A DNA stretch of 58,470 nucleotides from the IMG/VR virus record IMGVR_UViG_3300042397_002506, positions 1-58,470 of that record, one strand, 5' to 3'. The stretch is from a virus (lineage: Duplodnaviria; Caudoviricetes). Below the pieces are notes generated by a model. That model saw only the letters and a list, made by a program, of their open reading frames with translations, ran no database searches and was not told where the DNA came from. Below are positions 2,765 to 25,242 of the stretch, piece by piece. A program made the position numbers and the translations under genes. Each line of letters starts with the position of its first letter. The stretch's first letter is position 1.

Positions 2765-2812
2765 TACCAATATCTAATTTCATAAAAAGCCTAACTGGGG
2801 AGAGTGAACCGA

Positions 2813-11800: not shown

Positions 11801-13093
11801 ACCGGATTTAGTGCGGAATATTACTCAGCAAGACCTCGTATCACTGGTGATGTAAACTACTGGACCGGCTCAATGGGCTGGGGTACGATCGATATGAACG
11901 ATCTTGCTCACTGGGGTTCTGGTTTCATTGACTCTTGGAGCAACCCTGGTAACCAACCAAGTGGTACATCACATTGGGTAGGTACGCAAGCATGGCACTA
12001 TACTGATAACGGCAATGCTCGTTATGGTTGGCAGCTAGTTGGTGGTCCAATTGGTAACCTTCGTTTCCGTCAATCATGGTCTGGCTTTAATGCATGGCGC
12101 ACAGTTCCAATGCTTGGTGTTAACGACGGTAACGGCGCTGCAATGTATGCTAACATTTATTATGATAGTGATAACACTGGTTACTACTGCGATCCGTCCG
12201 GTTCTTCAAACTTAAACCTAGATTTAACAACTGACCAGTATTACGCTCGCGGTTGGTTTAGAAATAACAACGTAAATACAGGTCTGTACAATCAGGGTAC
12301 TGGCAGCCACTGGTATTCATCAAGCTCGCAATACTGGAATGCAACTGGTAATAATAACGGCGCGGATATGAACATCCGTGGTTTAGCAGCTTATCAGGGT
12401 ACAAGTCGTTTCTGGTTGCACGGTGCAACTGATGGTTACCAAGGATTCTTGAATTCAAACGGTTCTTGGTTGTTCAGAATGTCTCACAACGCTGGCCAAT
12501 CGCCAGGTATTTGGTTCTACGAAGCTGGCGAAAGCTGGACTGGTAACATTGGTGCTGACGTTGGTAAGATTGAATACCACGCAAACCGTTTCTACATCGT
12601 GTCTGGTTCTAACTCAGATCGTATTGTGCAGTTTAGACGTGACGGTAGTGATTTCTCTTATATTGCTAACGATGGTGTATTTGTTGGTACTGCAACTTCA
12701 GCTCGTTGGGCCGACTTAGCAGAACGTTATGAAGCAGACGCTATCTATGAAGCAGGTACAGTATTAGCTATTGGTGGAGATAAAGAAGTTACTCTTTATC
12801 AACCTGGTATGCCACTTGCTGGAGCAATATCAGTTAAGCCTGCTTATCGTATGAATGATGAGAATTACGGAAACGATAATTCTATCGAATCTAAGATGAA
12901 TCCGTTTGTCGCTCTTAAGGGTCGTATTCCAGTTCTAATTAATGGTTCTGCTAAAAAGGGACAGTGGATTATTGCTGATAAAGACGGAAGAGGTAGAGCT
13001 GTAGATTACGGTACATCCGGTATAAATACGTTTGACATTATTGGTATCGCTATTGGTGATAGTAACGGCGGTGAGGTAGAAGTTAAAATATAA
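2813..13093 (+). CDS. Giant modular tail fibre/adhesin (3,426 aa) with a C-terminal autocleaving-chaperone-like domain
   Basis: ATG at 2813 follows a GGGGAGAG SD. About 21 copies of (R/Y)APIFYDSxxxxYYxD and 7 of H(N/R)G(D/N)xxx.F. C-terminal ARWADLAERY...GTVL...VALKGRIPV resembles peptidase G2/intramolecular-chaperone domains. Confidence 0.85.
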   Translation: MANNKKFIVKNGLESQENVVIGTTTDDGVNKLQVTGSSKLTGAVEVTQSTAATPTVKFTNSAGPSALIAEFAGTSQSVRITNFSAGDYSILNTGQSNGIRLFNDTAGLDILYNGNTDLVFNSTGIDFKRAPTYLGNVFWNAGNDGANSGLDADLIDGLDSSQFLRSDESDTMNGSLIITGNLTVQGTTTTLSTETILLADNIITLNSNYTGSTPSENAGIEVERGTLANSTFQWLEASDKWELGGPSLGLILGDTSNRQGAITSYANSFIIEAGGASGVSSGTVLLSGRLFGTAANAGVAAFHNPTTNISYGELLYNGSPRIRSESVGVTALGNSTVQGTLTVGTGSGGAYIYLDGAGTNGTIYSSAGEIGFLNASLNYALKVDTAGDVRVTDNIYAQKFIDINNNTYQVVPSVTSVLNNIDLEGSLRHNGDTDTFITFPTTGRIGFTLDGTQYGLMTNTAFQYTGDVIADRFLDRSDNAYYVDPANSSVLNTVGIDSDLFHNGDTDTKLSFATDSITLSTANVVRLTANTTALTSSLDVYAPRYYDSNNNAFYLDPASTSELNSANFYSASANNAINVGINAAQRFNIDVTSSQGYIRYIQNEIDATDHSVNFEIISGSGGLNRFNFNKNIDVGSNTITGGFGVFTSGAYASVFYDYDNEAFFADLNNTGNSINIAGTVQAGNGTLALPSYTFGSDTNTGMYRAGVDTIGFSAGGNDEFRILTTYTLSPGSSRAPIFYDSDNTAYYGDFASTSVMNRVGIDDYIQHNGNITSYFGFSANNIFKLFTNGAERLNIDDNSADFSVDVYAPRYYDSNTITYYGDFAATSVMNRIDIDDYIRHNGNTTSYFGFSANNIYKLFTNGVERLNVDDDSADFAVNVYAPQYYTNDYLIHNGDTNTYVGFDANDQFGVWTNGVKQIAVNTTAVAINLNTNITGALDVTGRATIGNSLTRPDSLAVLANSAARIGGADVHLHVASLGAAANYAVALQSGRQSDNVSFPLVMQPNGGNVGVGTLTAGATLTVNKKTAQGNNPFAAGTSLFSLGDVDVVDYSIRTDSFGNIFHVNDNGGNQIWYTSSAGGLFAILNTGDVVVNNDSTTYAVTDAATNFIATGTASNNKLHVTGSISMGSINDVISIYGADGANTAITSATFLGVNELGFSGGGGFYMNDTATVRVRGNKAISTTGDITGARFIDAGNNTYIVDPAGTSVMNRIDIDDYIRHNGDTDNYFGFAANDTFRVFTGNAQRLNIDNDSADFTVNVYAPIFYDSDNNAYYGDFGGTSNMSRIDVDDYIRHRGNTDAYFGWAGNNNFKLFTNGTERFNIDADSADFAINVYAPRYYDSNDSTYYVDPASVSIMNNVSFGVPGNGSNVKGRFLSIEGDTDASGEGSSRIFFAEHNSTTADQDKYGMALAYRGGNAAINSVTGQPTTLTGLGNGEWGLLGYDNSISGNWAMRGPRSSAYVEARGDFRAPIFYDSNNTAYYGDFASTSIMNIVRVGQLQVDDATTFIDSRAGDYGTIRVEGTTGAGSWAGYAIRDDWVFMSNGAASAGIYNDTDNEWALEAAQNSWTRLYANGVHQLSAENGYGFAPTSMRSPIFYDSDDINYFANFAAGNANNAIKVNGRIFREGFTADSGSTNTFLLAQDENQFIWNTATNWGIFWATNTSAAYRYTPFGDNMISFVGAGNLRAAIDLDNGAAYFQGAVTAADFKINGGNEDLGILKTYGSGLGDTMMFDGTEYWEKRVIKVMQGAEANATNTTAEYVKNNNGPFASTYALRTNQYRTFDSDYIPVEPGEQIYGEIAVRYISGSGGLVYMGVRRYDKDKLAIAGNDGIEYFVVGGNNVTDTNWQTFRGHTTIPSSHTPFSGSDGGACKYVRVIVLMNYPNAGGPALREYGPPVLKRVNHLSNLVTDFDLSVGGNATITGDLTVDDITSDVIDANLFRDRSNNAYYVDPYGFTNLGRDTGTVVAITKTGASTDNTLIVTNTRGDHSYGITGEFRVEGTAGTDRPSILFSSGYNSNTWSAGFGFTDSNFRIKYDHGHRNGSWGTTSLEIDRSSNVWAYGSMRSPIFYDNDNTGYYGDFASTSNLNALNAEATTVRHLNFKGEGGDSGVGTRAYSIYQEAGAWSFPYPDLRIAFHTGIKFGANSGYQGMRFYDDYTMVTQVMSINNANDALGANNVYVNNSLQAGSSLRAPIFYDSNDTNYYGDFASTSVVNVLRANQLQLDGSTYTIDSVSDDYGSIAVNGYRNGWAGYSINNQWVFMSSGPGNAGIYNDVNNQWAILAAQTSDVQIFFNGTWEERSRSGFMEARGSYRAPIFYDSDNTAYLIDGNGTSRLLNLNVDNVIGGSVNGYSELLLSRDNRTIAPSEDPAARMRFGFTSWANNDSAPYADYLHLRSYTDASGGSDNLITFLKSGIGMRIRQQTWGSGTAYSTVRNVTIYNENPGAGNDLYASIYYDSNDTSYRVDPTDTSIIRYLKVNTAGSSSGTRALTIKSDGQAEINFGAYPGNWTSALQIQNNNNTDFVWISPLDDGQNARFRTGGSGLDIYTDGGSGDAGTYSAFIGSGSVRSSIFYDLDNTGYYLNLNGSSNHAGDFRTDQFYARGWFRNDNSGTGLYNQATAMHWYSDTSSRFRLYSTTSTSQILMATAGDVARGYVYAENDNSIGFLNNGGSWRMRIVSGDWIDVGGSSIRAPIFYDNQDTTYYVDPNSSARIATVGVGLAANNGGKLSVTGGHGDSNIRVTAQGNQLGSGVTSSMHWWVSEPGVTWNEGGFGFNVTNDGGTPSGFGRPNTSYGQGYMRYTTGGDIVVYNTNTSGTRFQNMEFLSNGTVYANNYLTGGNSLRAPIFYDSQDTGYYSDPNGGSRLNTTENIGRVGFSNYLVSRNEGGMMGSYNATGTADKVIWTIGESWPLGNMYGLAYSYGGFGPFGTQHKLVLRENGSTSTQFGFGGNMYVAGSGAAQNDFRAPIFYDSNDTAYYFDGASVNSTRFEGVSNRTKAMMGLPGRTGFSAEYYSARPRITGDVNYWTGSMGWGTIDMNDLAHWGSGFIDSWSNPGNQPSGTSHWVGTQAWHYTDNGNARYGWQLVGGPIGNLRFRQSWSGFNAWRTVPMLGVNDGNGAAMYANIYYDSDNTGYYCDPSGSSNLNLDLTTDQYYARGWFRNNNVNTGLYNQGTGSHWYSSSSQYWNATGNNNGADMNIRGLAAYQGTSRFWLHGATDGYQGFLNSNGSWLFRMSHNAGQSPGIWFYEAGESWTGNIGADVGKIEYHANRFYIVSGSNSDRIVQFRRDGSDFSYIANDGVFVGTATSARWADLAERYEADAIYEAGTVLAIGGDKEVTLYQPGMPLAGAISVKPAYRMNDENYGNDNSIESKMNPFVALKGRIPVLINGSAKKGQWIIADKDGRGRAVDYGTSGINTFDIIGIAIGDSNGGEVEVKI
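13021..13028 (+). promoter_or_regulatory. Candidate late promoter inside the 3' end of the fibre gene, upstream of the enzyme island
   Basis: Exact TATAAATA about 80 nt upstream of the 13108 start. Confidence 0.55.
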
Positions 13094-13107: not shown

Positions 13108-13545
13108 TTGATTAGATTATGCAAGTTACTACCATTGCTTAAGCAAGAAATTATTAGCTATGACAGATATGAGTCCGGGGAACTAAAAGTAATAGGATAC
13201 CCCGGACTTCTTAATTCTGATATATCAGTTAGAGATAAGATGAGTTATTCGCAATGGCTAGAATCGTATCAAACATATCCAATAATTAAAGTAGAAGGAC
13301 TTGAAAGAGTTATCACTAGCTTTAAATCTGTACATCTATTTTACAATCAAAAGTCTCGTTATAGTTTTAAATGGCACACAGACCCAGTAGACGTTCAACT
13401 GTACGTTCTTAAGGGTACAAAGTTTCTGCAAGTAAGAGACAAGAATTACAAATTAGTAGCAGGACAATCTGCTAGAATTCCTAAGAATTATCTCCATAAA
13501 GCATACAGTATTGCTGATACTTGGGCATTGAGTACAGTATCTTGA
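13108..13545 (+). CDS. JmjC/cupin-type 2OG-Fe(II) oxygenase
   Basis: WHTD (HxD)...GTK...IPKNYLH iron triad and cupin layout. TTG start with AGGA SD. Confidence 0.75.
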   Translation: MIRLCKLLPLLKQEIISYDRYESGELKVIGYPGLLNSDISVRDKMSYSQWLESYQTYPIIKVEGLERVITSFKSVHLFYNQKSRYSFKWHTDPVDVQLYVLKGTKFLQVRDKNYKLVAGQSARIPKNYLHKAYSIADTWALSTVS

Positions 13546-14300
13546 TGCAGCATATTTTTAATCCACCTGCTATAATTGCGAATGCTCCTGCTTTTAAAGA
13601 AGCACCGGCAATTCAAAAAGAACGTATTGAATTTGAAGATAAACTAAAAAGACAAATGTTTTTTGGTTCTATATCTAAAAGAGAAGCAGACGGAAGAACA
13701 TATAATTATATTGATAAAAACGGCGAGTATGTTTCTAGCTTTTTAAGTCCGTATAATGCAAACATTCTTGATAATGTAGAGCCAGAAATAAAAAATTTAA
13801 TATCGGCTTTAATAAGCAAAGGTTATTTAACAGCCGGATCTTGTCAAGGACATACCGTTGGTAAAGAAAAAAGTTTAACACGATGGGTAATGATTTCTTT
13901 TATTAGTTTGGAAGAACAAAATCGATTTATTAGTCAAATTAATAGCTTTAAATTGCCGGTGTTTTGGTATTTTAATTTTTTAAACACTGTTGAGAATCCT
14001 AAAACAGAAGAAACTAGAGACGGTAAGTCGCTATCTATAAATTTTAAAGATGTCCAGCATAAATCAACAGATGAAGCAAAACACAATAAATACACTAATA
14101 AAGACCTAGCAGATTATTGGAACATTATGTTTGCTAGGAAGTACGCAGAATATTATCCTGTAATGATGTGTATTTGCTCTTGTCCTGGCGATATATCAGT
14201 TTTAGAAAAAATTAAAACATTTATGTTTTGGCCTTTTCGAAATTACTACACTACCAAACTGACAGCTAAAATAAAGAGTATTAATAATTATGAATGGTGA
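13545..14300 (+). CDS. Hypothetical protein (L..KGY.T.GSCQGH motif)
   Basis: ATG at 13545 overlaps the upstream stop (TGATG); 251 aa; family not assignable. Confidence 0.7.
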   Translation: MQHIFNPPAIIANAPAFKEAPAIQKERIEFEDKLKRQMFFGSISKREADGRTYNYIDKNGEYVSSFLSPYNANILDNVEPEIKNLISALISKGYLTAGSCQGHTVGKEKSLTRWVMISFISLEEQNRFISQINSFKLPVFWYFNFLNTVENPKTEETRDGKSLSINFKDVQHKSTDEAKHNKYTNKDLADYWNIMFARKYAEYYPVMMCICSCPGDISVLEKIKTFMFWPFRNYYTTKLTAKIKSINNYEW

Positions 14301-14303
14301 AAT

Positions 14304-15362
14304 GTGAAAGATATTTTAATATATTTAAAAACAACCGAAACTTGTAATCTTAATTGCATGCATTGCTTTACTAGTGGAAGTAAAGGTGCAAAAATTTATT
14401 GGGATTATAAAAAGGTAGCAGATTGGTTGCATCGATTATCAGTCGAGATTCCGCAAACAAGTCATACTCATTTAGAGTTTCATGGCGGCGAACCGTTCTT
14501 AGCTGACCTTGAAACTATGCAATACGTATACGATGATTGCAAAGACTTGTGGACAAGCCAAAGTTGGGGTATTACAACTAACTTAACATTTAAATTAACA
14601 CAAGATAAAATAGATTTTATTCAAGGGCCGTTAGGCGGACACATTGGTACAAGCTGGGATCCTGATATTAGATTTTCCAGTCCTAAACAATATGATCTCT
14701 GGCGTAAAAACGTAGAAACATTAATTGACTTAGGCGTAACTATAAAATTGTTTGTTAGTGTAACAAAAGGCACAATAGCTATAGAGCCTATTGATTTACT
14801 AGAATGGGTTCGAGACTTAGGAGTCAAAGAATTAGCACTAGAGCGTTTAACAATGAATGGTAGTGCTAGAAATAATTTGCATATATTCCCTACTAACACA
14901 GAACAAGACAGTTGGTTCTTAAAAATGCATGAACAAAGCAAAAAAGCAGGCGCTCGAGATTGGTTTGATAATGAATTTTTCGAAAACGTATATGCTAAAT
15001 TTGAATCTGGAATGACAAAAGGTGGCACATTTTGTAGAGACTGTGAAGAGAAACTATTTACAGTTAATGCAGATGGATCTATTTCTGGATGTCCAAATAG
15101 TGCGCCAGAACATTCTTTTGGACATATTAATGATGATATACCACAATTATTGTACAGTCCAAAGCGAATAGAAAACATTGCTTGCGAAAGAAGCAGAGAT
15201 CCGAGATGTTATGAATGCCCAGTTTTTCAATATTGCGGCGGTGATTGTCATCAATTAGAATGGCAAGATGATGTTTGCGGAGCTCCAAAGAGTTTGATGC
15301 GCGAGTTAGCTGGAATAAATAGAATAAATACTAATAAAGTATTCTTAATAAAGGAATTATAA
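14304..15362 (+). CDS. Radical SAM/SPASM protein 1 (peptide/protein maturase-like)
   Basis: CNLNCMHC (CX3CX2C), FHGGEP, SPASM-type CRDC...GCPN...CYECPVFQYCGGDC...C. Confidence 0.92.
   Translation: MKDILIYLKTTETCNLNCMHCFTSGSKGAKIYWDYKKVADWLHRLSVEIPQTSHTHLEFHGGEPFLADLETMQYVYDDCKDLWTSQSWGITTNLTFKLTQDKIDFIQGPLGGHIGTSWDPDIRFSSPKQYDLWRKNVETLIDLGVTIKLFVSVTKGTIAIEPIDLLEWVRDLGVKELALERLTMNGSARNNLHIFPTNTEQDSWFLKMHEQSKKAGARDWFDNEFFENVYAKFESGMTKGGTFCRDCEEKLFTVNADGSISGCPNSAPEHSFGHINDDIPQLLYSPKRIENIACERSRDPRCYECPVFQYCGGDCHQLEWQDDVCGAPKSLMRELAGINRINTNKVFLIKEL
15314..15330 (+). promoter_or_regulatory. Tandem late-promoter variants (AATAAATA x2) upstream of the Cys-His-tailed gene
   Basis: AATAAATA at 15314 and 15323. 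The same variant precedes gp19 (39367) and the 28415 gene (28385). AAGGA SD follows. Confidence 0.45.
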
Positions 15363-15363
15363 A

Positions 15364-15936
15364 ATGGCAGGCGGTTTAACCGATAATATTAATGCGCAGA
15401 ACGTTGTAAATAGATTTGCTGATTACGTTCGCGGAGCAGCAAATCAAGGTATTTCATGGGGAACTAACTCCTATCCTTTTGGAGAGTTTAGTGCTATTGC
15501 GTTTGTATTTGGTGGAGACACTAATGGCAAACCCATCGAAATTAGTGGTGGAAACATTAATAGCAACCCTATTACTGCTCAAACAGTATATCAAGTATTA
15601 ATTGACGAAACCACAAGATATACACGTGTTAGATTAATGCGAGCATTGCTGTTTGTCGATGGCGCCGGCGGAAATACTGGAACCCGACCAAATCCTGGAT
15701 ACGTATATGACGGCACCGCAGTAGCACATCTTAACAGTAATTACCAAGTTGGAGTTAGTGCTGGTAGAAATAACGTGTTTGCCGGAAACGTTATGACTAG
15801 AGGCGGTACCGCCGATATGTTTAACAATATGCGTGCAGCTTATAACAACATTCGTGGGCAGGCTGTAACATTTCAAGTCAACGTTTGCCATGCTAGTTGC
15901 CATAGCAATTGCCACAACTCTAGATCGAGAAGATAA
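15364..15936 (+). CDS. Gly/Asn-rich protein with C-terminal CHASCHSNCHNSRSRR; putative modification substrate/virion protein
   Basis: All 3 Cys lie in a period-4 CHxx repeat at the C-terminus. Composition resembles the fibre genes. Directly follows rSAM/SPASM 1. The function is inferred. Confidence 0.6.
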   Translation: MAGGLTDNINAQNVVNRFADYVRGAANQGISWGTNSYPFGEFSAIAFVFGGDTNGKPIEISGGNINSNPITAQTVYQVLIDETTRYTRVRLMRALLFVDGAGGNTGTRPNPGYVYDGTAVAHLNSNYQVGVSAGRNNVFAGNVMTRGGTADMFNNMRAAYNNIRGQAVTFQVNVCHASCHSNCHNSRSRR

Positions 15937-16655
15937 TGAACTTTATTAAAACAACCGCACCTATTTCAATCGACAATTTAAAAAAATATTTTGTTGATAA
16001 AGACACATTTTTTCTTATTGACTACAAAAATTCTGCTTTAAATGGTAGCAAACTATTAACATATCTCAGCAATCTAGATGTGCCAGCAGACATAGATTTT
16101 ACTGGATGTTCTGATGATGAATTTTTTGAAATGACAAAAGAATATTTAAATTCGCAAACTATTTGTAACATTGCATTTTTAGAAAAAGCTGTAATAACTA
16201 TTTTAAAAGAAAAAAACGGATTATCAAATACTGAATTCTTTAAAGATTTCATATCTAAAAATTCAGTAATATTAGATGAATGGTTATCTAAAATTTATAG
16301 CTTGTCGTTATTTAATATGTATGCGATAGATGCGCCAGAGTACAAAAAATTTGTAACTGATCATCCATTAGATACTACTGATTCATTAGTTGGCATTAAT
16401 TTTGTTAGCTTATTAAAGCATGAAGAATTATATGACTTGTATCAGACAGTCGAAACAAGCAAAATGAAATATTACAAAACATATTTTGACGAATACATGT
16501 TTAAAGGTAAAAACTTGTATTCGTATTGGGCTAACGAAAACAATCCAATGTTTTTATTAACTTTTAATATAGCAGAGGGAACTATTACAGGTGATGAGTA
16601 TTTTGCGAATATAAAAGAAACAATTAAGGAGATAGAAAATGCTACACCTGTTTAA
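15936..16655 (+). CDS. Hypothetical protein of the radical SAM island
   Basis: 239-aa ORF coupled to the upstream stop (TAATG). Confidence 0.75.
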   Translation: MNFIKTTAPISIDNLKKYFVDKDTFFLIDYKNSALNGSKLLTYLSNLDVPADIDFTGCSDDEFFEMTKEYLNSQTICNIAFLEKAVITILKEKNGLSNTEFFKDFISKNSVILDEWLSKIYSLSLFNMYAIDAPEYKKFVTDHPLDTTDSLVGINFVSLLKHEELYDLYQTVETSKMKYYKTYFDEYMFKGKNLYSYWANENNPMFLLTFNIAEGTITGDEYFANIKETIKEIENATPV

Positions 16656-17682
16656 CAAAGTTTATATTGTTAGTGATTCATTAGTAAATATAAACTTTGA
16701 TAGAGTAGTTATTTCTCAGCAATATGGTAAGCAAATGCTTGAGACATTAGATAAGATTGCGTACGGAGATCTTATAGCCTACGGTGCTAATATTAATGAA
16801 GTGTTAGCAGATTCTAGCTTTCCTGAGTTTATTCAATTAATTAAAAACAAAGCTGCAGTATCCGACAAAAAGATTATAATATACGCAGATGACGCAAGCT
16901 TTTCTAAGTTTGTAGCAATGTGGTTTAAATCTATTTTTAAAAATATTTCATTAGAATCTGCTTGGCTAATATTGTCTTCGTATATTGAAAAAGAAAAGCT
17001 AATGAGAGGTTCTAGAACAAACTTATATACCGCTAATGTTGCAGATGTTTTTCCATTATTAACCGAAGAACAATTTACCAGCGATTTTACTGATGCAATA
17101 TCTCATGATTTAATTGACATTACTTCAAGTATTAGCTTTGAGATATTGCTAGCAAATTACATTAATAATAATACTTATAAAGAAGAATTAAAAAGTTCAA
17201 TAATTACTATTTTAAAAAGAGCTTTGGAAGAATTAGCTATTGAAGTAAAGTATTCGTATGTAAAGAATTTTAAAAATACTCAATATCCAATAATTGCTGA
17301 TGCCAAAAACTTCTTTACCAATTCCAGCATTTATACTGGATTGAATTTAGGCCGAGTTAGTAGCCAACATAACACAACAAATTTAACCAGTGCTACAACT
17401 GAAGATATTGCTAAGTTTAAAACTGTAGCTAATTTAATCATGTTAAACTGGGAACAATTCCAACAACAGTCAACAATTTTTTCTTTAATACAGTTTCTTG
17501 ATGTAATTAGACAAACAGAAATTACAGATGCAAACTTAGAATCGATTATCAATTTTGAAAAAAATGCTTTAGGTACAATGAGAATATATTCTTCAGCAGA
17601 CGAAGAAAAAATTAACATTTATTTTCTTAGACATGTGTTGTCTGCTGCGCCTAGTGATTTAGAAGAATATGAACTTAAATGA
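16639..17682 (+). CDS. Hypothetical protein of the radical SAM island
   Basis: 347-aa ORF with AAGGAG SD, overlapping both neighbours. Confidence 0.75.
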   Translation: MLHLFNKVYIVSDSLVNINFDRVVISQQYGKQMLETLDKIAYGDLIAYGANINEVLADSSFPEFIQLIKNKAAVSDKKIIIYADDASFSKFVAMWFKSIFKNISLESAWLILSSYIEKEKLMRGSRTNLYTANVADVFPLLTEEQFTSDFTDAISHDLIDITSSISFEILLANYINNNTYKEELKSSIITILKRALEELAIEVKYSYVKNFKNTQYPIIADAKNFFTNSSIYTGLNLGRVSSQHNTTNLTSATTEDIAKFKTVANLIMLNWEQFQQQSTIFSLIQFLDVIRQTEITDANLESIINFEKNALGTMRIYSSADEEKINIYFLRHVLSAAPSDLEEYELK

Positions 17683-18298
17683 TCAATATTATGATCGTGG
17701 TTTTTTTGCAGTAGAGTTAGACGGACTAACTAAAAGTCTTTTGTGGAATGAAATTACTACTACTAATTGGGTGCCAGATACAGTAGATGGTATTTACAAA
17801 CAAATACCAGATTGGTACAAAAGTAATGTTAACTTAAAGAATATTACTGGAGCAAATCGAGCCGATTGCGAGCGAATTATTGGTGATCATATTATGAAGC
17901 TTGCTCCAGAATCTCTATTAAATGTTGGTAATATTTTAGTAGATACTGAACCATTTCAGTTGTTTAAAAAATACTTTAAACGACATGAGTTAAAATTTGT
18001 AGATATGTGGAATGGTAGCGAAGAAATACCATATCATTTTGACACTATTAACGGGTGCGATACATTAGTACTAATATATTTAACAGATCAACACGTCTGG
18101 GATCCAAAATGGGGTGGTGCTATTTCTATGAAAAAAGAAGTAGATAATTTTGTTATATTTGAACAAGAAATATTACCTAACAATGGTACTATGCTAGTAA
18201 TTAATAATGCTAATCCGTTAGTTTATCACAAAGTTACAGCACTCAAAAATACTAACATAAATAGATATACATTTTCTTTTAATTATAATTGGTTTTAA
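17669..18298 (+). CDS. 2OG-Fe(II) oxygenase (prolyl-hydroxylase-like)
   Basis: YHFD...W...WGG...HKV...RYTF: HxD...H triad plus the 2OG-binding Arg. Confidence 0.85.
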   Translation: MNLNDQYYDRGFFAVELDGLTKSLLWNEITTTNWVPDTVDGIYKQIPDWYKSNVNLKNITGANRADCERIIGDHIMKLAPESLLNVGNILVDTEPFQLFKKYFKRHELKFVDMWNGSEEIPYHFDTINGCDTLVLIYLTDQHVWDPKWGGAISMKKEVDNFVIFEQEILPNNGTMLVINNANPLVYHKVTALKNTNINRYTFSFNYNWF

Positions 18299-18299
18299 T

Positions 18300-19313
18300 A
18301 TGATTGCTTCGCAGCTAATTGACATGCATAATAAGCGCCCTACGACTGGCGAAATAATTGTTACGCTGTTTGAACTCTGTAATTTGTCGTGTTTATTTTG
18401 CCCACAAGACCATGCTAGTATCGAAGGCATTGATACAATCGTAAGTAAGATAGATCAAATTAAAAGTGTAATTGATACTCTGCGCAAAAAAGGAAAAAAA
18501 GACTTTTCAATTCATCTTATGGGCGGAGAATTGTTTTCTGATGAGCTAGATGATTCTGTATTTAGAGATTACAAAACTCTTATAGACTCAATAAATACTT
18601 ATTGTATTGAACAAAACGTGCCAGTAAATATTTCAGTTGTAAGTAATTTAGTATGGCAAAAGAAAGATAGAGTTAAACGGTTTTTAGCTGATACTGATGT
18701 TAGCATTATGACTAGTTATGATCCTTCTGGCAGATTCGATAAACACTCTTTAGAAATATTTAAAGAAAATGTTGTAGAATTTAAAGATCATATTGTAACG
18801 GTAAACGTCATTATAACAAAACCTACAATAGATAAGTTTTTAAAAAATCAAATACCATTCTTTGATTATTTGTACGAAAATTTTAATGTTTATTTTGATC
18901 AATACGGACCTGAAAAAAATCAAAAGTTTTTAATGGCGACTGATTTGCAGGTCCGTGACTTTATGATTTACTTAGTAGATCACTGGCCAAACGTAATGCC
19001 AGTTACAGATTACTTTTCAAAAACAAAAAGTCAAATGACATGCATGGATACATATACAGTGATGCCTGCTGGTAAATGGGGTGGGTGTGGTCAATTCGAA
19101 GAAATAGATAAAGTAATACCAATTAAACTAGTCACTGAGCAATCGTGGCTAGATGGATATAACTGCTTAGAATGTGAGCATTTTAATAGATGCTCTCTTG
19201 GTTGTTTTATGAGCAACCATGTAAGAGATATGCGAACCCAAAAAGAATGTTGGCTAAAAGAAGTTTATGATTATGTTGACAATAAGATAACGACTGATGA
19301 GGATTCAAAATGA
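18300..19313 (+). CDS. Radical SAM protein 2 with C-terminal Cys-rich (SPASM-like) domain
   Basis: CNLSCLFC, MGGELF, C-terminal CLECEHFNRCSLGC...C. Confidence 0.88.
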   Translation: MIASQLIDMHNKRPTTGEIIVTLFELCNLSCLFCPQDHASIEGIDTIVSKIDQIKSVIDTLRKKGKKDFSIHLMGGELFSDELDDSVFRDYKTLIDSINTYCIEQNVPVNISVVSNLVWQKKDRVKRFLADTDVSIMTSYDPSGRFDKHSLEIFKENVVEFKDHIVTVNVIITKPTIDKFLKNQIPFFDYLYENFNVYFDQYGPEKNQKFLMATDLQVRDFMIYLVDHWPNVMPVTDYFSKTKSQMTCMDTYTVMPAGKWGGCGQFEEIDKVIPIKLVTEQSWLDGYNCLECEHFNRCSLGCFMSNHVRDMRTQKECWLKEVYDYVDNKITTDEDSK

Positions 19314-20410
19314 TTTTAACATTAATAGAACAAAACAAAGACTTTATTGCTGAGGAAGCAATCAGCTATATTAGAAAGAAATATCCCAGTTTTAAATACG
19401 ACTACGAACTTCTAAGAAGAGATATTCATATGATAGCTGATATTTTTATGGGTGAGCTTGAATTAGAAGGTGGTGTGTATTTTTTAGATACTAGAGACGG
19501 AGTTGATTTGTCTAATGCACAAATGAACAGATATAAAAGATCTTTTACAGTATTTCGAAATCACAATATTGAAACCATTGAATGTATTGAATATGTATCA
19601 ATGTTAATTGAAAAAATATATAACAATGAAGTTATTGAAAATACGTACAATACTAAATTTCCGCAAATAAAAAATTCTAGCATACCTCAACAAGAAAATA
19701 AAACAATAAACTTCCAAGAAATTACTGGTTTGATTGTTGCTAACTCTGCAGCAGGCGCAACAAGGAACTATCACATTGAATTTATAGAAGAATACTTTGA
19801 TAAAGGATTTGTAGTTACAAAAATTCCACCTCAAATTTATGAAAAGCTTTGGGAACAAGTTCGTACAACAAACTGGATAGATGCTAAAAAGTCAACTTAT
19901 AAAAAAGTGCCAGACTGGTATCACGAAAATGAAAAACATTATGTTGATCCAACTGGATATGACAGACCCAGTTATGAAAGAAAAATTGGAGCAGACATGT
20001 TTACTAATGCTCCGCAAAGTCTTATCGATATTTCAGATGAATTGATTAAAGATCCTTTGTTTGATCCTTTAAAGATGTACCGCCCGCCTAATCCGGTAAC
20101 TAAGTATTTGCACTTTTGGAATGGAAGTGAAAACTCTCCGCACCATGTCGATGCTATTGATGGATCTGATCTAATGATTTTCTGTTATTTAACAGATGAA
20201 ACGGATTGGAAAGAAGAATGGGGTGGATATATTAACATCATGAAAGAAGTTAATTCGGAAATAACTAATACAAAAACAGTGTTGCCAAACGATGGTGTTA
20301 TGGTCCTTGTCAATAATTCAGCTCCTATTTTTAAACATGGAATTAGAAACTTGGTAAAACGAGATGTAAACAGATACACATTCATTTTCCACTATACTTG
20401 GACCTTCTAA
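19310..20410 (+). CDS. 2OG-Fe(II) oxygenase with N-terminal helical extension (paralog of 17669)
   Basis: HHVD...WKEEWGG...HGI...RYTF; the C-terminal ~210 aa align by eye with the 17669 product. Confidence 0.85.
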   Translation: MILTLIEQNKDFIAEEAISYIRKKYPSFKYDYELLRRDIHMIADIFMGELELEGGVYFLDTRDGVDLSNAQMNRYKRSFTVFRNHNIETIECIEYVSMLIEKIYNNEVIENTYNTKFPQIKNSSIPQQENKTINFQEITGLIVANSAAGATRNYHIEFIEEYFDKGFVVTKIPPQIYEKLWEQVRTTNWIDAKKSTYKKVPDWYHENEKHYVDPTGYDRPSYERKIGADMFTNAPQSLIDISDELIKDPLFDPLKMYRPPNPVTKYLHFWNGSENSPHHVDAIDGSDLMIFCYLTDETDWKEEWGGYINIMKEVNSEITNTKTVLPNDGVMVLVNNSAPIFKHGIRNLVKRDVNRYTFIFHYTWTF

Positions 20411-20428
20411 TTCAACCATAAATATACT

Positions 20429-21499
20429 ATGGAATTGATAATTAAACCAACTGAACGATGCAATTTTAAATGTACATTTTGCTCTTCAACTCGTATTACA
20501 GAAGATAAAACTGACGAGTTGTCGCATGATACTATATTTGAATTTTTAGAACGTTTTCCAGAAACAAACACTATAATTGTTAACGGTGGCGATCCGTTAA
20601 TGATGTGTCCTGGATACTACTGGAAAATTATCGAGTATCTTGATGAAAAAGAAATGCCTACTACTATCAGTTTTACTAGTAACTTGTGGCCGTTCTATAA
20701 AAATCCTAACAAATGGAAAGAATTATTTAATCATCCGAGATTAGGTATTACCACAAGTTTCCAATACGGCGGTGGTAGACTCAAAGGCGATTTGTCGGAG
20801 TTTAGTGAAGAAGATTTTTGGGCAGTTAGTGACGCTATGTTAGAGCATGTTGGATATAGACCAGACTTTATTAGCGTAATTACTAAAGAAAATGAACATT
20901 TGGCTATTAAGAATGTTGAATTAGCAAAGCGAATGGGAGTTGAATGCAAACTAAACTATGCATTTAGTAGTGGTCCACCTGTAAAATTTAAAAACATTAC
21001 TATGGGGCAAGAAGGTCAACCTTATATGCTAGCTGACATATATGAAATTTATGTTAAAGTTTGGCAGTTAGGTTTGACTGAATGGGAATATAATACAAAG
21101 CAAATGGTAAAACGTTTAAAGGGACATAGCACCACTTGCCCACAAAGTAGAAATTGTGATTCTAATATTAGAACTTTACAGCCAAGCGGAGACTACTACA
21201 GTTGTGGTTCGTTTGGAGATGATAGACAATATGCTATAGACTTTAAAAAAGAAATGGCTGGAGAAAAAATATATCCACTCAGATTTCAGCTAGAATTGCA
21301 AAATTTAAAAGAAAGTTGCTACACGTGTCCAATGTTTCAAATTTGTAATGGTTGCAAAAAGACTATCAAAGATTTAAAGGTTCACGGATTAGTAGAAAAA
21401 CATTGTGCTAAAATGAAAACGCTAGCTCCGTTAATAATCGAATCAAACAATATGACTGGTATGATGGAAATAACACCGTATTTAAACGAAAATGTCTAA
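20429..21499 (+). CDS. Radical SAM/SPASM protein 3
   Basis: CNFKCTFC, NGGDP, CPQSRNC...YSCG...CYTCPMFQICNGC...HC. Confidence 0.9.
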   Translation: MELIIKPTERCNFKCTFCSSTRITEDKTDELSHDTIFEFLERFPETNTIIVNGGDPLMMCPGYYWKIIEYLDEKEMPTTISFTSNLWPFYKNPNKWKELFNHPRLGITTSFQYGGGRLKGDLSEFSEEDFWAVSDAMLEHVGYRPDFISVITKENEHLAIKNVELAKRMGVECKLNYAFSSGPPVKFKNITMGQEGQPYMLADIYEIYVKVWQLGLTEWEYNTKQMVKRLKGHSTTCPQSRNCDSNIRTLQPSGDYYSCGSFGDDRQYAIDFKKEMAGEKIYPLRFQLELQNLKESCYTCPMFQICNGCKKTIKDLKVHGLVEKHCAKMKTLAPLIIESNNMTGMMEITPYLNENV

Positions 21500-21505
21500 T
21501 ATATT

Positions 21506-22414
21506 ATGAACATTAGCGTTAACCCTACATACTACTGCAATTTTAGATGCGATTTTTGTTATTTAACACCAGAACAATTATCCGATCGAGCTCTATTATC
21601 ACTTGATTCACTATCAGAAAAATTAGCAGAAATTATATCTCACACTAATATAGATATGGTAGACATATATGGTGGAGAAATTGGACTGCTGTCAGAATCT
21701 TATTGGAATAACTTAATTTCAATACTTTATTCTTATGGTATAGATGATATAAATTTAATAACAAACTTATCAATGTTAAATGTCGTAACAGAAGATGATA
21801 GAGTACACACTTCTGTCAGTTATGATTTTGAGGCAAGAGAATCATCCGATAAAGTATGGAGAAATATGGCATTGTTAAACAAACCATTTTCTGTTTTGAT
21901 GCTAGCGTCGCCATCACTTATTAAGCAAGACGTTGACTATATGGTTAACATGTTTAATACATTAGGTAATTTAATATCGGTGGAAATTAAACCGTACAGC
22001 GCAAATCAAGCCAATCAATTACAAGTTTCTTATACAGAGTATGAAGAGTTTGTTAAAAAATGGATTGAAAATAAAAATAAAAAGTTTCAACTAAACAATA
22101 TACACCTGTTAAATTCAGTAGTAGATGCAAGTCGCAATAGTTTTTCAGATGATCACGTATATATAACACCATCTGGCAACTACGGTGTACTAGAGTTTGA
22201 TCTAAACGAAAATGAATTTTTTAAAGAATACAAAACATTTAAAGAATATCTCCAATGGTGTAATTTAGAAAAGGTTAGAGTATCAAATAATAAATTTTGT
22301 TCAAAATGTGACTACTATGGCAAATGTCTTTCAGAGCATTTACGTGATGTAAAGAATGTAAAAAACAGCTGTAATGGATTTGTAAACCTTATTAAATGGT
22401 ATGAAGATAAATAA
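21506..22414 (+). CDS. Radical SAM protein 4 with reduced auxiliary Cys motif
   Basis: CNFRCDFC, YGGEI, C-terminal CSKCDYYGKCLSEH...SC. Confidence 0.85.
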   Translation: MNISVNPTYYCNFRCDFCYLTPEQLSDRALLSLDSLSEKLAEIISHTNIDMVDIYGGEIGLLSESYWNNLISILYSYGIDDINLITNLSMLNVVTEDDRVHTSVSYDFEARESSDKVWRNMALLNKPFSVLMLASPSLIKQDVDYMVNMFNTLGNLISVEIKPYSANQANQLQVSYTEYEEFVKKWIENKNKKFQLNNIHLLNSVVDASRNSFSDDHVYITPSGNYGVLEFDLNENEFFKEYKTFKEYLQWCNLEKVRVSNNKFCSKCDYYGKCLSEHLRDVKNVKNSCNGFVNLIKWYEDK

Positions 22415-22826
22415 TATGGAAGAATGGAAAATTAGACAAGAAATTTATCATCGAATAAACACTGAGTATTCTGATGATCTCAAAAAATTTAATATTGAAC
22501 TAACTAATGATATTGTAGGCGATGCTATAAGATACTTCTATGACAGAAATATTGGGTGGGTTTATCCATCTAAGTCATATATGGTTGCTATATGTTATGC
22601 TCGATGGCTAGAACACTATTTTGGTGGCGATGTATATGACTATCTTAATGATCCGGAATTACTGCATGGAAACGACCCTTATTTTGTAGAATATAGTAAA
22701 GACCCTAAAACATATCACAAAATATTAGCAGTTGTTACATGGGAATTTAATGAAAATTCAGGATTAGTACCTGATGTGAAAGAATACTTTTTGAAGGAAT
22801 TTTTAATTGATGAACCCGGGATTTAA
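22401..22826 (+). CDS. Hypothetical protein of the radical SAM island
   Basis: 141-aa aromatic-rich ORF overlapping both neighbours. Confidence 0.7.
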   Translation: MKINNMEEWKIRQEIYHRINTEYSDDLKKFNIELTNDIVGDAIRYFYDRNIGWVYPSKSYMVAICYARWLEHYFGGDVYDYLNDPELLHGNDPYFVEYSKDPKTYHKILAVVTWEFNENSGLVPDVKEYFLKEFLIDEPGI

Positions 22827-23379
22827 CGAACTGTGGCCTACGACAGTATACTTAGGTAAAATTGAAGATGAAACTTTGCTTTCCAGAGTATGCGATGCAA
22901 TTTTTACTGAAGTTGATTTAACAAATCCGCCTAACGATTTTCACGAATATGATATACTTCGTGATGGATCTGAAGTATTCCAAGAATTTCGTGATAAGGT
23001 TGTATGGCCAGCATTTGAAAAATACTTGTTAAACTGGAACATTGATATAAATGATTTTGAAGAAAGACGAGTAAGAGCTTGGCTTACCGGCAGTTATACC
23101 GGATATGCCATGCCAGTTCATAATCATAGCGGATCTCCAATTAGCTCAGTATTTTACCTCATGAATGAAGAACAACAAGCTGGCGGAGAACTAGTATTAA
23201 TGGATCCTCGTCATAATGCAAATAGAGGCTACCAAGAAGAATTTAAGTCCATGTTTGAAAATCAATGCTATACACCTAAATCTGGCGAATTTACCATGTT
23301 TCCTGGGTTCGTTTATCACCATACTTTGCCTTTTAAGGGAAAAATCCGATTGGCAATGCCCGTTGATCTATTTCTATAA
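22810..23379 (+). CDS. Putative 2OG-Fe(II) oxygenase (TIGR02466/2OG-FeII_Oxy_5-like)
   Basis: HNH...SSVFY...L.L.DPR...P..G...MFP.FVYH...R pattern typical of this phage oxygenase family. Confidence 0.8.
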   Translation: MNPGFNELWPTTVYLGKIEDETLLSRVCDAIFTEVDLTNPPNDFHEYDILRDGSEVFQEFRDKVVWPAFEKYLLNWNIDINDFEERRVRAWLTGSYTGYAMPVHNHSGSPISSVFYLMNEEQQAGGELVLMDPRHNANRGYQEEFKSMFENQCYTPKSGEFTMFPGFVYHHTLPFKGKIRLAMPVDLFL

Positions 23380-23816: not shown

Positions 23817-23834
23817 TAACAAAAGGAATCTGTC

Positions 23835-25237: not shown

Positions 25238-25242
25238 TACGT

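Follow-up and report, generated by a model that had tools for sequence, protein, structure and literature searches.

A phage radical SAM gene island inferred to mature a small Cys-His-tailed protein

Why would a large phage carry four radical SAM enzymes and several oxygenases next to a giant tail-fiber-like gene? This question is raised by a viral sequence from the Caudoviricetes (IMGVR_UViG_3300042397_002506), which is 58,470 nucleotides long (hereafter called the window). The original prediction was that positions 13108-23379 encode a multi-step post-translational pathway centered on a small protein with a Cys-His tail, and that its product stays on the virion. The observation itself is confirmed by our analysis. 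The interpretation is partly supported: our data support the pathway, whereas the virion location rests only on gene position.

Gene organization of the island

Thirteen + strand ORFs run from 13108 to 23379, with gaps or overlaps of at most about 25 nucleotides. As originally described, they comprise four radical SAM (rSAM) enzymes, four oxygenases, four proteins of unknown function, and one 190-amino-acid protein. No protease, transporter, or immunity family was found by Pfam and NCBIfam searches. The genes lie in the structural block, on the same strand as the sheath and fiber genes.

The giant fiber-like gene. Immediately upstream (2804-13093, +) is an ORF of 3429 amino acids. Its last ~130 residues match phrog_19602, annotated as tail fiber protein (E 5.5e-10), although Pfam finds nothing in the protein. 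The last ~190-310 residues are the part most conserved across related loci, where coverage peaks at 58-61 blast hits. Downstream of the island (23430-24164, +) are two DUF7936 proteins of 128 and 109 amino acids (PF25590, 42.8 and 47.7 bits). The original label of these genes as fiber-associated could not be confirmed. They lie next to the island in other arrangements in eight viral loci, but are present in only 5 and 2 of 40 fully flanked loci, and thus are loosely linked to it.

The radical SAM enzymes

The rSAM1 gene (14304-15362, +) is located directly upstream of the gene for the tail protein. The enzyme carries the CX3CX2C cysteines C14/18/21 and eight further C-terminal cysteines that are conserved across orthologues. 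The SPASM model TIGR04085 scores 37.9 bits (cut-off 27), and full-length matches are obtained to PapB (56.1 bits), DynA (45.8), and anSME (40.9). The protein also matches phrog_1802 (2.9e-68).

The rSAM2 gene (18300-19313, +) codes for an enzyme with C27/31/34 and seven further conserved cysteines, and this protein likewise matches phrog_1802 (1.8e-44). The rSAM3 gene (20429-21499, +) codes for the best conserved enzyme of the island, with C11/15/18 and eight further cysteines. It matches DynA (45.6 bits), anSME (43.3), and the SPASM model (25.9, below the cut-off), and is the only one of the four to pass the Pfam Radical_SAM (PF04055) cut-off (35.8 versus 29.5 bits), with the others scoring 17.0, 18.4, and 26.3. 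Relatives of rSAM3 are encoded by 263 viral contigs.

The rSAM4 gene (21506-22414, +) codes for a smaller enzyme with C11/15/18 but only four additional conserved cysteines (C265/268/274/289), sufficient for one auxiliary cluster at most, whereas rSAM1-3 carry full SPASM cysteine sets. It matches phrog_1802 (9.6e-41) and gives weak viperin-like hits of 33-36 bits over 220 residues.

It had been set out beforehand that clustering with cofactor- or nucleotide-modifying families, or homologous islands without the Cys-His protein, would count against a maturation pathway, and the pathway is not refuted on these grounds. The best full-length matches of rSAM1 and rSAM3 are instead peptide or protein maturases, and the NCBIfam nucleotide or cofactor hits for these two proteins (MoaA, NrdG, viperin) cover only the N-terminal cluster region. 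The rSAM motif begins at residues 11-34, so there is no N-terminal RRE domain, as in anSME-like enzymes that act on proteins. However, no model of a characterized maturase comes near its curated cut-off, and the chemistry therefore remains a guess.

Oxygenases and proteins of unknown function

The original count of three HxD...H oxygenases and one HxH...H oxygenase is correct, and all four metal triads are intact. The first (13108-13545, +) is a cupin-type protein of 145 amino acids whose TTG start is uncertain. Its triad (H90/D92/H130) is conserved at 100% in 28 sequences, and it passes the Cupin_2 cut-off (27.6 versus 27.2 bits), whereas its JmjC_2 hit is weak (15.9 versus 22). The gene for 2OG-Fe(II) oxygenase a (17669-18298, +; 209 amino acids) codes for a conserved triad of H123/D125/H187 and scores 21.7 bits with PF13661, below the cut-off. 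The gene for 2OG-Fe(II) oxygenase b (19310-20410, +) codes for a protein with an N-terminal extension of ~250 amino acids and the triad H279/D281/H343, for which only four sequences were aligned, and scores 26.5 bits with PF13640 without passing. The gene for 2OG-Fe(II) oxygenase c (22807-23379, +) codes for a protein with H105/H107...H171 that passes 2OG-FeII_Oxy_5 (PF13759; 44.8 versus 27 bits) and matches phrog_81 (3.3e-18).

None of the four unknown ORFs has a Pfam hit above cut-off. The 259-amino-acid protein unk259 (13521-14300, +), which has no PHROG or NCBIfam hit either, is an accessory part of the island. The proteins unk239 (15936-16655, +; phrog_20767, 5.7e-63), unk347 (16639-17682, +; phrog_36207, 6.2e-5), and unk141 (22401-22826, +; phrog_20737, 1.9e-50) are core members, and searches found no PDB or NCBIfam relative for any of the three.

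The CHS protein and its tail

The presumed substrate, which we call the CHS protein (15364-15936, +), has 190 amino acids and ends CHASCHSNCHNSRSRR. No N-terminal hydrophobic signal is visible, and no Pfam, NCBIfam, PDB, or Atlas relative was found. The tail (residues 175-190; 15886-15933, +) is followed directly by the stop codon. In this copy, it consists of CHAS, CHSN, and CHNS followed by RSRR. Across the family, it is better read as three C-H-x-S units plus RGRR than as CHxxCH alone.

A DNA pattern for the tail identified at least 119 viral contigs. Although the pattern did not include a stop codon, the motif is the exact C-terminus of an ORF in 114 of the 119 loci, which is not expected by chance. 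A search for homologues returned 254 proteins, and 119 of 120 close homologues carry the tail. A profile search found 893 representatives of clusters formed at 50% identity, and 138 of the best 150 end with CHxxCHxxCHxxRxRR, where four of the 12 exceptions differ by a one-residue insertion. In the 138 representatives, Cys, His, and the three Arg are invariant, and Ser is found at positions -13, -9, and -5 in 128, 107, and 124 sequences. The invariance of Cys, His, and Arg in the DNA-pattern hits is partly circular, and even in the homologue and profile searches, where it is independent, the profile includes the tail.

In contrast, the body of the protein drifts. Five orthologues from isolated phages share almost only the tail, and the body, which ranges from 125 to 365 amino acids, is well conserved at its N-terminus but variable in the middle. 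One cluster representative fuses a Gly_rich_2 domain to the CHS body.

Poor conservation of the body relative to the tail is also common for the leaders of RiPP precursors. The protein could be a long-leader precursor whose modified tail of 12-16 residues is released by a host or unrecognized protease to act in the infected cell or the prey as a free small molecule, such as a metal chelator or a redox cofactor in the manner of PQQ or mycofactocin. SPASM maturases and a Cys-rich C-terminal core fit the RiPP pattern, the four unknown proteins could hide a protease or carrier, and several consecutive oxidizing enzymes are typical of cofactor pathways (PqqE with PqqB/C, MftC). However, no protease, transporter, or RRE domain is recognizable in any of the 13 genes, and the conserved N-terminus, the location in the structural block, and the gene arrangements described below all weigh against this possibility, which we consider unlikely.

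Linkage and distribution of the module

Among the 114 tail-bearing viral loci, the upstream neighbor of the tail gene is rSAM1 in 72 and the giant gene in 25, whereas the downstream neighbor is unk239 in 63. When rSAM3 is used as the starting point instead, the tail gene is found upstream in 61 of 80 loci, and 13 of the other 19 lack upstream sequence. Of 40 rSAM3-anchored loci with full flanks, rSAM1 is present in 40, rSAM2 in 39, rSAM4 in 39, unk239 in 38, the CHS gene in 37, oxygenase c in 36, the cupin in 35, unk141 in 34, unk347 in 32, the giant gene in 25, unk259 in 12, and oxygenases a and b in 11 each. Exactly four rSAM genes occur in 38 of the 40. A variant with two tails was observed in 23 loci. 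In this variant the tail genes remain directly after the giant gene while the enzymes lie kilobases away, as in three loci noted, which ties the tail protein to the fiber gene rather than only to its enzymes.

The module is not a peculiarity of this phage, but is spread over unrelated lineages that include T4-like, phiKZ-like, and Rak2-like phages. The capsid protein encoded in the window is nearest that of the T4-like Sinorhizobium phages phiM12/phiN3 at 69%, whereas phages RSF1 and FLC6, which also carry the module, are phiKZ-related. The same cluster lies on Mb-size contigs of the predatory Bdellovibrionota, and rSAM3 matches these copies with E-values of 2e-127 to 2e-155. In three of four 20-kb regions examined, the cluster is flanked by proteins with a Peptidase_S74 intramolecular-chaperone domain (E 9.4e-14), and five further 8-kb loci also hold an S74-like ORF. 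S74 fibers are prey-recognition adhesins in B. bacteriovorus (PMC10769870). However, only 6 of 201 sampled genomes of the phylum have the protein.

The linkage data also bear on the possibility that the tail is simply a metal site (Zn, Cu, or an Fe-S cluster held by three Cys and three His) of a structural or chaperone protein, while the rSAM and 2OG enzymes modify something else, such as the giant fiber, a glycan, or DNA. Cys-His pairs at four-residue spacing are good metal ligands, and trimeric phage fibers such as T4 gp37 hold metal ions on His repeats. In addition, sugar-nucleotide genes lie just downstream (26451-27239), and rSAM4 weakly resembles viperin-type enzymes. However, rSAM1 abuts the tail gene in most tail-bearing loci, and the enzymes follow the tail gene into Bdellovibrionota without any giant gene. 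The conserved Ser at the fourth position and the RGRR end are not explained by a pure metal site, and we regard this alternative as improbable.

Proposed function

We favor, with moderate confidence, a model where the island is a dedicated maturation pathway whose substrate is the C-terminal tail of the CHS protein. In this view, rSAM1-3 and the smaller rSAM4 would each abstract a hydrogen atom at a defined carbon of the tail to install intramolecular links or oxidations. Candidates include thioethers from Cys sulfur to carbon (sacti/ranthi type), three-residue cyclophanes from His to Ser (triceptide type), and possibly conversion of Ser to formylglycine at the S-R-G-R-R end (anSME type). The cupin and 2OG oxygenases would then hydroxylate remaining side chains. 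Because no protease or exporter belongs to the module and the body of roughly 170 residues has a conserved N-terminus, the product most likely remains a whole protein with a rigid, basic, possibly metal-binding C-terminal knob. The matured protein probably works with a trimeric fiber at the surface of the target cell, as a tip or adhesin or as an assembly partner.

The gene content, motif invariance, co-occurrence, and distribution are established by our analysis. In contrast, the relation between the enzymes and their substrate is a strong inference, the whole-protein product and its association with the fiber are moderate inferences, and the chemistry is a weak one. Some observations are not easily accommodated by the model. 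RSF1-type phages have no giant gene upstream of the module, only 25 of 40 fully flanked loci hold a giant homologue, and the lists of putative structural proteins of FLC6 and S13, whose method of compilation is not evident, do not include the orthologue, which by gene order would be gp72. Furthermore, four distinct rSAM enzymes is many for a 16-residue tail, and so some may act on another substrate. Placement of the protein on the virion is drawn from gene position alone, namely after the giant gene in phages and beside S74 fiber genes in Bdellovibrionota.

Comparison with known systems

The family has no name, the system appears not to have been described in print, and our literature searches agree with the original statement that no characterized example is known in phages. 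The module fails every curated membership cut-off. A bacterial analogue, the HXS defense system, was published in 2026 (PMC13128918), which raises the possibility that the island is a phage and predator version of the same principle. In this scenario, a basic His-x-Ser repeat peptide matured by rSAM enzymes would bind nucleic acid or the entry channel, and would serve superinfection exclusion or, in Bdellovibrionota, anti-phage defense. The tail holds three H-x-S units followed by a basic run, like the modified SHRSS repeat of HxsA, which needs two rSAM enzymes and a small protein. The patchy distribution in Bdellovibrionota is also typical of accessory defense genes, and rSAM1 and rSAM3 give weak hits to HxsB and HxsC (34.3 and 30.3 bits).

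However, these hits are far below the cut-offs (370 and 267.9) and cover the N-terminal part only. Moreover, the CHS protein has no signal peptide or peptidoglycan-binding domain, its invariant cysteines have no counterpart in HxsA as described, and there is no PADLOC hit beyond generic viperin-like rSAM similarity. The position inside a late structural block is also unusual for exclusion genes, and thus a defense or exclusion role seems doubtful.

The closest analogues are HXS (HxsA/B/C), ranthipeptide maturases, anSME/QhpD, and His-type triceptides. Among these, HxsA provides a precedent for the model we favor, as this His-x-Ser repeat protein is matured as a whole protein by two rSAM enzymes (PMC13128918).

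Gene content of the island

The 58,470-base IMG/VR virus record is estimated to be 27% complete and carries a myovirus structural block, including genes for the sheath (37434-39368) and the major head protein (45424-46752). The head protein is closest (69%) to those of the T4-like Sinorhizobium phages phiM12 and phiN3. Thirteen + strand ORFs lie between 13108 and 23379, almost without gaps, and follow a 3429-aa ORF (the giant gene) whose last ~130 residues match a PHROG of tail fibre proteins. Upstream of the giant gene, positions 477-2753 encode a 758-aa tail-fibre-like protein (phrog_32829, E 2.3e-24) with weak PAS-fold hits at threshold. A 185-aa antisense ORF (14621-15178, - strand) lies inside the first radical SAM gene, but it is most likely spurious since the + strand gene is conserved across hundreds of loci.

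Downstream of the island are two DUF7936 genes (23430-24164). In other contigs (loci L013, L016, L022, L049, L051, L080, L093 and L119) they appear next to the island in a different arrangement, either on the opposite strand upstream of the cupin gene or downstream of the last 2OG oxygenase gene, which suggests a loose functional link. Positions 24200-27239 carry three further genes, coding for a 345-aa protein without a family, a 411-aa protein with a weak TPR hit, and a 262-aa fusion of a cytidylyltransferase-like domain with a mannose-6-phosphate-isomerase-type cupin (PF01467 48.6 bits, PF01050 81.8 bits). This could be a sugar-nucleotide or glycan module in the structural block. The 345-aa gene travels with the DUF7936 pair in other loci.

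Radical SAM enzymes. All four radical SAM enzymes (rSAM1 to rSAM4, in gene order) have the CX3CX2C motif near the N-terminus, which binds the SAM-cleaving 4Fe-4S cluster in this superfamily. The motif is conserved in 77-100% of orthologues, and the lower values come from ATG-only ORF calls. PF04055 passes its cut-off only for rSAM3, at 35.8 bits. rSAM1, rSAM2 and rSAM3 have 8, 7 and 8 further cysteines conserved in their orthologues, which is the SPASM pattern of seven to eight Cys for two auxiliary clusters, whereas rSAM4 has only four and does not fit it. The SPASM model TIGR04085 (cut-off 27 bits) passes for rSAM1 at 37.9 bits and narrowly misses for rSAM3 at 25.9 bits. The best full-length alignments of rSAM1 and rSAM3 are to PapB, DynA and the anaerobic sulfatase maturase, but all are far below the curated equivalog cut-offs.

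We also considered a nucleotide- or cofactor-modifying role. However, the MoaA, NrdG and viperin models of NCBIfam match only the cluster-binding N-terminus, and we therefore rank this possibility low. The exception is rSAM4, for which a PADLOC search returned a weak, generic viperin-like (pVip) match covering residues 8-226; PADLOC gave no other hits. A PDB sequence search with rSAM1 matched only the N-terminal cluster region of a tetraether synthase, and the search with rSAM3 gave a spurious hit.

Oxygenases and unknown proteins. The cupin and the three 2OG oxygenases (2OG_a, 2OG_b and 2OG_c, in gene order) keep their metal triads at 91-100% in orthologues. Three are HxD...H and one is HxH...H, as stated in the original prediction. 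The Pfam cut-off is passed only by the cupin (27.6 bits) and 2OG_c (44.8 bits), and the double-stranded beta-helix fold is inferred from sequence alone. Four ORFs (unk259, unk239, unk347 and unk141, named for their lengths in residues) have no family beyond PHROGs of unknown function. NCBIfam searches with the unknown proteins found nothing, and profile searches of the PDB with unk239, unk347 and unk141 found nothing significant. No protease or transporter family was found in the Pfam and NCBIfam searches. The observation of a packed island of four radical SAM enzymes and four oxygenases around a Cys-His-tailed protein is confirmed.

The tail protein

The 190-aa presumed substrate (the tail protein) ends CHASCHSNCHNSRSRR. 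A megablast search of the whole island against isolate phages found no match. However, a tblastn search with rSAM1 found 15 isolate-phage records, including the phiKZ-related Ralstonia and Burkholderia phages RSL2, RSF1, FLC6, FLC8 and S13, Sinorhizobium phage Phosso, and Pseudomonas phage pPa_SNUABM_DT01. Isolates with the module were reached only through rSAM1 and the tail protein of this record; tblastn searches of isolate phages with a tandem-type tail protein and with one of the type found at viral locus L018 gave no match.

In the four isolate regions examined (RSF1, DT01, Atu_ph07 and Phosso), the order cupin, rSAM, small protein, unknowns, further rSAMs, 2OG oxygenases recurs. The upstream gene is annotated as a cupin in RSF1 and DT01 and only as hypothetical in Atu_ph07 and Phosso, and no 2OG oxygenase is annotated in those two stretches. 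DT01 carries six annotated radical SAM genes in the module (record 44619-69605), followed by two 2OG oxygenases and a transglycosylase, and the enzyme set can therefore expand. In all four regions, the gene after the first rSAM ends C-H-x-S-C-H-x-S-C-H-x-[SA]-R-[SG]-R-R-stop, while the rest of the protein has diverged almost beyond alignment.

A degenerate DNA pattern for the tail, without a stop codon, hit at least 119 viral contigs. In 114 of these the motif is followed at once by a stop and closes an ORF, whereas the other five (L014, L050, L057, L065, L068) are low-complexity or lack the stop. A word-indexed protein search found 254 homologues. Of the best 120, 119 carry the full tail and the one exception has a single His-to-Asn change. 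A profile search over 1.84 billion cluster representatives found 893 at E of 0.001 or better and 699 at 1e-10 or better. Of the best 150, 138 end CHxxCHxxCHxxRxRR. Among the other twelve, four have a one-residue insertion before the arginines, two have a different ending after four CH units, one has an altered second unit (H-A-N in place of C-H-x), one has only two CH units before a Gly-rich run, and four end early or differ after the third CH unit.

Serine holds the fourth place of the three units in 128, 107 and 124 of the 138, and the residue between the arginines is Gly in 101. Thus, the unit is C-H-x-S, three times, followed by R-G-R-R. The invariance of Cys, His and Arg in the DNA-pattern hits is circular, but in the two protein searches it is not forced, although the tail adds to the score. 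Variant tails also exist (L156:311 region, L240, and cluster representatives P0215 and P0231). A contig labelled Dysosmobacter segnis encodes at least six CH units interrupted by SNVV before ARGRR, and a small group has four CH units ending GDGPGNGGGV instead of RGRR.

The tail protein has no Pfam or NCBIfam model. A Pfam search of 65 tail proteins gave one spurious hit, and an initial DUF7592 hint (E 0.024) was not reproduced and is rejected. A profile search of the PDB found nothing significant, and a search of the ESM Atlas gave no usable hit. One cluster representative (P0154) has a Gly_rich_2 domain (PF21722, E 7e-11, residues 13-265) fused in front of the tail-protein body (residues 272-453), although this could be a natural fusion or a gene-calling artefact.

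Gene linkage in viruses

In the 114 viral loci, the gene just upstream of the tail gene is rSAM1 in 72, the giant gene in 25, rSAM2 in 1 and something else in 5. Nine loci have less than 1 kb of upstream sequence, and in 2 the ORF was cut. The downstream gene is unk239 in 63 and unk347 in 3, is other or unknown in 24, and 22 loci have too little sequence. Starting instead from rSAM3, the best-conserved enzyme, at least 263 viral contigs encode a relative. Of the best 80, 61 have the strict tail upstream on the same strand, 13 have less than about 5.3 kb of upstream sequence, one has a variant tail (L240), and five (L183, L187, L243-L245) show none in the stretch examined.

In the 40 loci with 10 kb on both sides, we found rSAM1 in 40, rSAM3 in 40, rSAM2 in 39, rSAM4 in 39, unk239 in 38, the tail protein in 37, 2OG_c in 36, the cupin in 35, unk141 in 34, unk347 in 32, the giant gene in 25, unk259 in 12, 2OG_a in 11 and 2OG_b in 11. 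Exactly four rSAMs are present in 38 of these loci. Neighbour assignments rest on blastp best hits against the proteins of this record at 1e-4 to 1e-5 with simple ORF calling, and divergent orthologues are therefore undercounted. The core is thus four rSAMs, the tail protein, three unknowns, a cupin and one 2OG oxygenase.

Twenty-three loci have two tail genes. In most of these, two proteins of about 128 aa follow the giant gene directly, and where the flanks reach far enough (L053, L080, L099) the enzymes lie several kilobases away. Here the tail gene keeps its place beside the fibre gene, not beside its enzymes. This short form, with two tail proteins of about 125-140 aa in tandem, occurs at loci L009, L034, L042, L043, L047, L053, L064, L071, L075, L078, L080, L085, L087, L089, L090, L098-L100, L102 and L110. 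Each protein has the full tail and a conserved RRTVDLIEGR segment. No isolate phage carries this form in the tblastn search. We also asked whether the C-terminus of the giant protein is related to the tail-protein body, but hhalign returned a probability of 0.06% and the idea is rejected.

Occurrence in Bdellovibrionota

The same pattern with a stop codon hit 47 stretches in one-genome-per-species bacterial and archaeal contigs. Eight are false, of which four are low complexity and four have no stop-adjacent motif, leaving 39. Of those, 27 carry Bdellovibrionota labels (Bdellovibrio, Bacteriovoracaceae, Halobacteriovoraceae, Pseudobdellovibrionaceae), and three of them sit on contigs of 1.3, 2.4 and 2.8 Mb. 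Several of the other twelve look like phage contigs binned into MAGs, because a giant gene is present (L137, L145, L155, L172). The cluster is sporadic, and was found in 6 of 201 genomes sampled evenly from the phylum, two of which were already known.

In three of the four 20-kb Bdellovibrionota regions examined (L176-L178), orthologues of all four rSAMs surround the tail gene (E down to 2e-155 for rSAM3), together with unk239, unk141, the cupin and 2OG oxygenases. The fourth (L175) shows only rSAM1, rSAM2 and unk239 by blastp, plus one unassigned CX3CX2C ORF. To examine a T4-like prophage origin, we searched five of these genomes with the capsid and sheath proteins of this record and found nothing, although these are weak, single-protein queries. 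A FastTree of 22 rSAM3 sequences puts most Bdellovibrionota copies outside the main viral group (88% local support). However, the tree is unrooted, many forks are open, and rows shorter than 300 aa and near-identical viral rows were left out, so we draw no donor from it.

In three of the four regions the cluster is flanked by 345-413-aa proteins with a pilin-like hydrophobic N-terminus and a C-terminal Peptidase_S74 intramolecular-chaperone domain (E 9.4e-14, with the SDxxxK motif visible), and by a conserved 200-aa protein without a family that ends RHWV[KQ]VK (these neighbours lie at L176:1760-3606, L177:6555-8224 and L178:15855-17563). The 200-aa protein is not related to the C-terminus of the giant protein by BLASTP (E 0.45), and this idea is also rejected. 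A B12-binding radical SAM protein (579 aa) abuts the cluster in L177. Five further 8-kb loci hold an S74-like ORF, and in the fourth region a 2355-aa RCC1/Big_2 protein follows unk239. S74-terminated fibres are prey-recognition adhesins of B. bacteriovorus (PMC10769870).

Predicted function

The relation between the enzymes and their putative substrate is our strongest inference and one we consider very likely, given a near-invariant 16-residue C-terminus next to SPASM maturases with which it travels. The gene content, the conservation of the motif, the co-occurrence of the genes and their distribution come directly from the sequence analysis, whereas this substrate relation, the chemistry, the intact-protein product and its association with a fibre or virion are all inferred. 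The accompanying interpretation of a multi-step post-translational pathway whose product stays on the virion is partly supported, with the virion location resting on gene position alone.

What the enzymes do is open. The C-H-x-S unit offers a thiol, an imidazole and a Cα/Cβ-H. SPASM chemistry on such residues includes Cys thioethers (PapB) and Ser/Cys-to-formylglycine conversion (anSME). It also includes His-to-Cβ cyclophanes (HtkB and HaaB; PMC11499958).

We favour a whole-protein product that works with a fibre. No protease or exporter was recognized, the body is 125-365 aa with a conserved N-terminus and a variable middle, the position of the gene is tied to fibre genes in both phages and predators, and one fusion to a glycine-rich domain exists (P0154). 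However, no proteomic evidence supports this view, the putative structural-protein lists of FLC6 and S13 omit the orthologue, and RSF1-type phages lack the giant gene. Furthermore, we cannot exclude a cleaved RiPP-like product, because four proteins are of unknown function.

A more speculative possibility, which we regard as tentative, is that large phages and predatory Bdellovibrionota share a machine that builds a covalently cross-linked, hydroxylated, cationic Cys-His-Ser knob on the C-terminus of a fibre-associated protein. This would be the first radical-SAM post-translational modification of a virion or predation-apparatus component, and the chemistry on the C-H-x-S unit would be a new cross-link type. 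The knob would serve attachment to, or penetration of, the Gram-negative envelope, and would mirror on the attacker's side the HxS-repeat effector that bacteria use to block DNA entry.

Radical SAM/SPASM maturation is known for secreted peptides and for a few cellular proteins, but it is not known for proteins encoded in the structural block of a virus. Genome papers on FLC6, S13 and RP12/RP31 merely list cupin, Fe-S oxidoreductase, radical SAM and 2OG genes among accessory genes. Literature searches on radical SAM enzymes of jumbo phages, on phage SPASM enzymes and tail fibres, on phage-encoded RiPPs with radical SAM enzymes, on radical SAM/SPASM enzymes of Bdellovibrio, and on the motif itself found no description of the module or motif. 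The maturation of a Cys-rich C-terminal core by such enzymes is already known, whereas the setting is new and the enzyme set is unusually rich. The family has at least 893 clusters at 50% identity and a sharply defined, testable 16-residue target, on which three SPASM rSAMs, one smaller rSAM and up to four oxygenases would act on one C-H-x-S repeat. If the product sits on the fibre, it adds enzymatic maturation as a new layer to host recognition by large phages, and it would connect phage adsorption, bacterial predation and the recently found HXS defence through one peptide motif.

Comparison with known systems

Classical RiPP gene clusters. These clusters have a short precursor with leader and core, an RRE-type recognition domain, and a leader protease and/or exporter. 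The island does not fit this description. The precursor-like protein is 125-365 aa, the rSAM motif starts at residues 11-34 and leaves no room for an N-terminal RRE, and no protease or transporter family was found, although the unknown proteins could hide such functions.

Ranthipeptide (SCIFF) maturation. PapB, a rSAM-SPASM enzyme like CteB, is the best full-length HMM match of rSAM1 (56.1 bits, residues 7-318 on model positions 6-319 of 330). Both systems have a Cys-rich C-terminal core with regularly spaced Cys, and SPASM auxiliary clusters. However, this score is far below the NF047865 cut-off of 340, and rSAM2 and rSAM3 score 19 bits. Ranthipeptide substrates carry Cys-X3-Asp/Glu units, whereas the tail is C-H-x-S and has no Asp or Glu in the last 16 residues of the 138 representatives, except rare D at the x positions. 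In addition, the 'leader' is a 170-aa conserved domain, there are four different rSAMs instead of one, oxygenases are added, and no protease or exporter was found.

Protein-maturing SPASM enzymes. The anaerobic sulfatase maturase (anSME) and QhpD are, like the enzymes of the island, short rSAM-SPASM enzymes without an RRE domain, and they modify a full-size protein that keeps working as a protein, as we infer here. anSME (TIGR03942) gives full-length matches to rSAM1 (40.9 bits) and rSAM3 (43.3 bits), and QhpD matches rSAM1 at 30 bits, far below the cut-offs of 349 and 453. There is no sulfatase or amine dehydrogenase partner. The sulfatase motif is C/S-x-P/A-x-R, and the tail end S-R-[G/S]-R-R is similar in form, with Ser in 124 of 138, Gly in 101 and Ser in 22 of 138 at the middle position, and an invariant Arg at +4, but Pro/Ala is replaced.

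Triceptides with His. In these three-residue cyclophane systems (HaaB, HtkB; PMC11499958), as in the tail, a three-residue unit beginning with an aromatic residue (here His-x-Ser) is repeated three times, and rSAM-SPASM cyclophane synthases link His C2 to a Cβ two residues on. However, the cyclophane-synthase models (YhhB, AmcB, XyeB, GrrM/OscB) score only 17.7-30.7 bits against cut-offs of 310-450, and triceptide precursors are short peptides.

Genes that follow fibre genes. Adhesins and assembly chaperones such as T4-type gp38 are encoded after phage fibre genes. The tail gene has the same position, directly after the fibre gene in 25 of 114 loci and within the fibre block here, and its product has a conserved N-terminus and a variable middle. 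In Bdellovibrionota the neighbours are S74-type fibre proteins, which are comparable to the MAT fibres of Bdellovibrio (PMC10769870). However, our searches found no sequence similarity to any known adhesin or chaperone family, and no adhesin is known to need radical SAM maturation.

The HXS anti-phage system. By the curated models, the island is not a member of HXS or of any characterised maturase family. The HxsB (TIGR03978) and HxsC (TIGR03977) models score 34.3 bits against rSAM1 and 30.3 bits against rSAM3, covering the N-terminal part only, with cut-offs of 370 and 267.9 bits. The HXS effector has a peptidoglycan-binding domain, is processed at the N-terminus and is exported, whereas no domain was found in 65 members of the tail-protein family and no N-terminal hydrophobic stretch or processing signal is visible in the sequences. 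Here each unit begins with an invariant Cys, which is not described for HxsA, and the units sit at the extreme C-terminus followed by RGRR. There are four rSAMs plus 2OG/cupin oxygenases, and the island is encoded by phages and predatory bacteria, not as a defence island of enterobacteria.

Nevertheless, HXS is the nearest published logic (Nat Commun 2026, PMC13128918). HxsA has five H-x-S repeats rich in basic residues, needs the rSAMs HxsB and HxsC plus HxsD, gains +8 Da on an SHRSS unit, and stays a protein. The tail likewise carries tandem His-x-Ser units next to basic residues on what we infer is a whole protein, matured by more than one radical SAM enzyme plus small accessory proteins, and in this view both products would be proteins rather than secreted peptides and would act at the phage-cell envelope interface.
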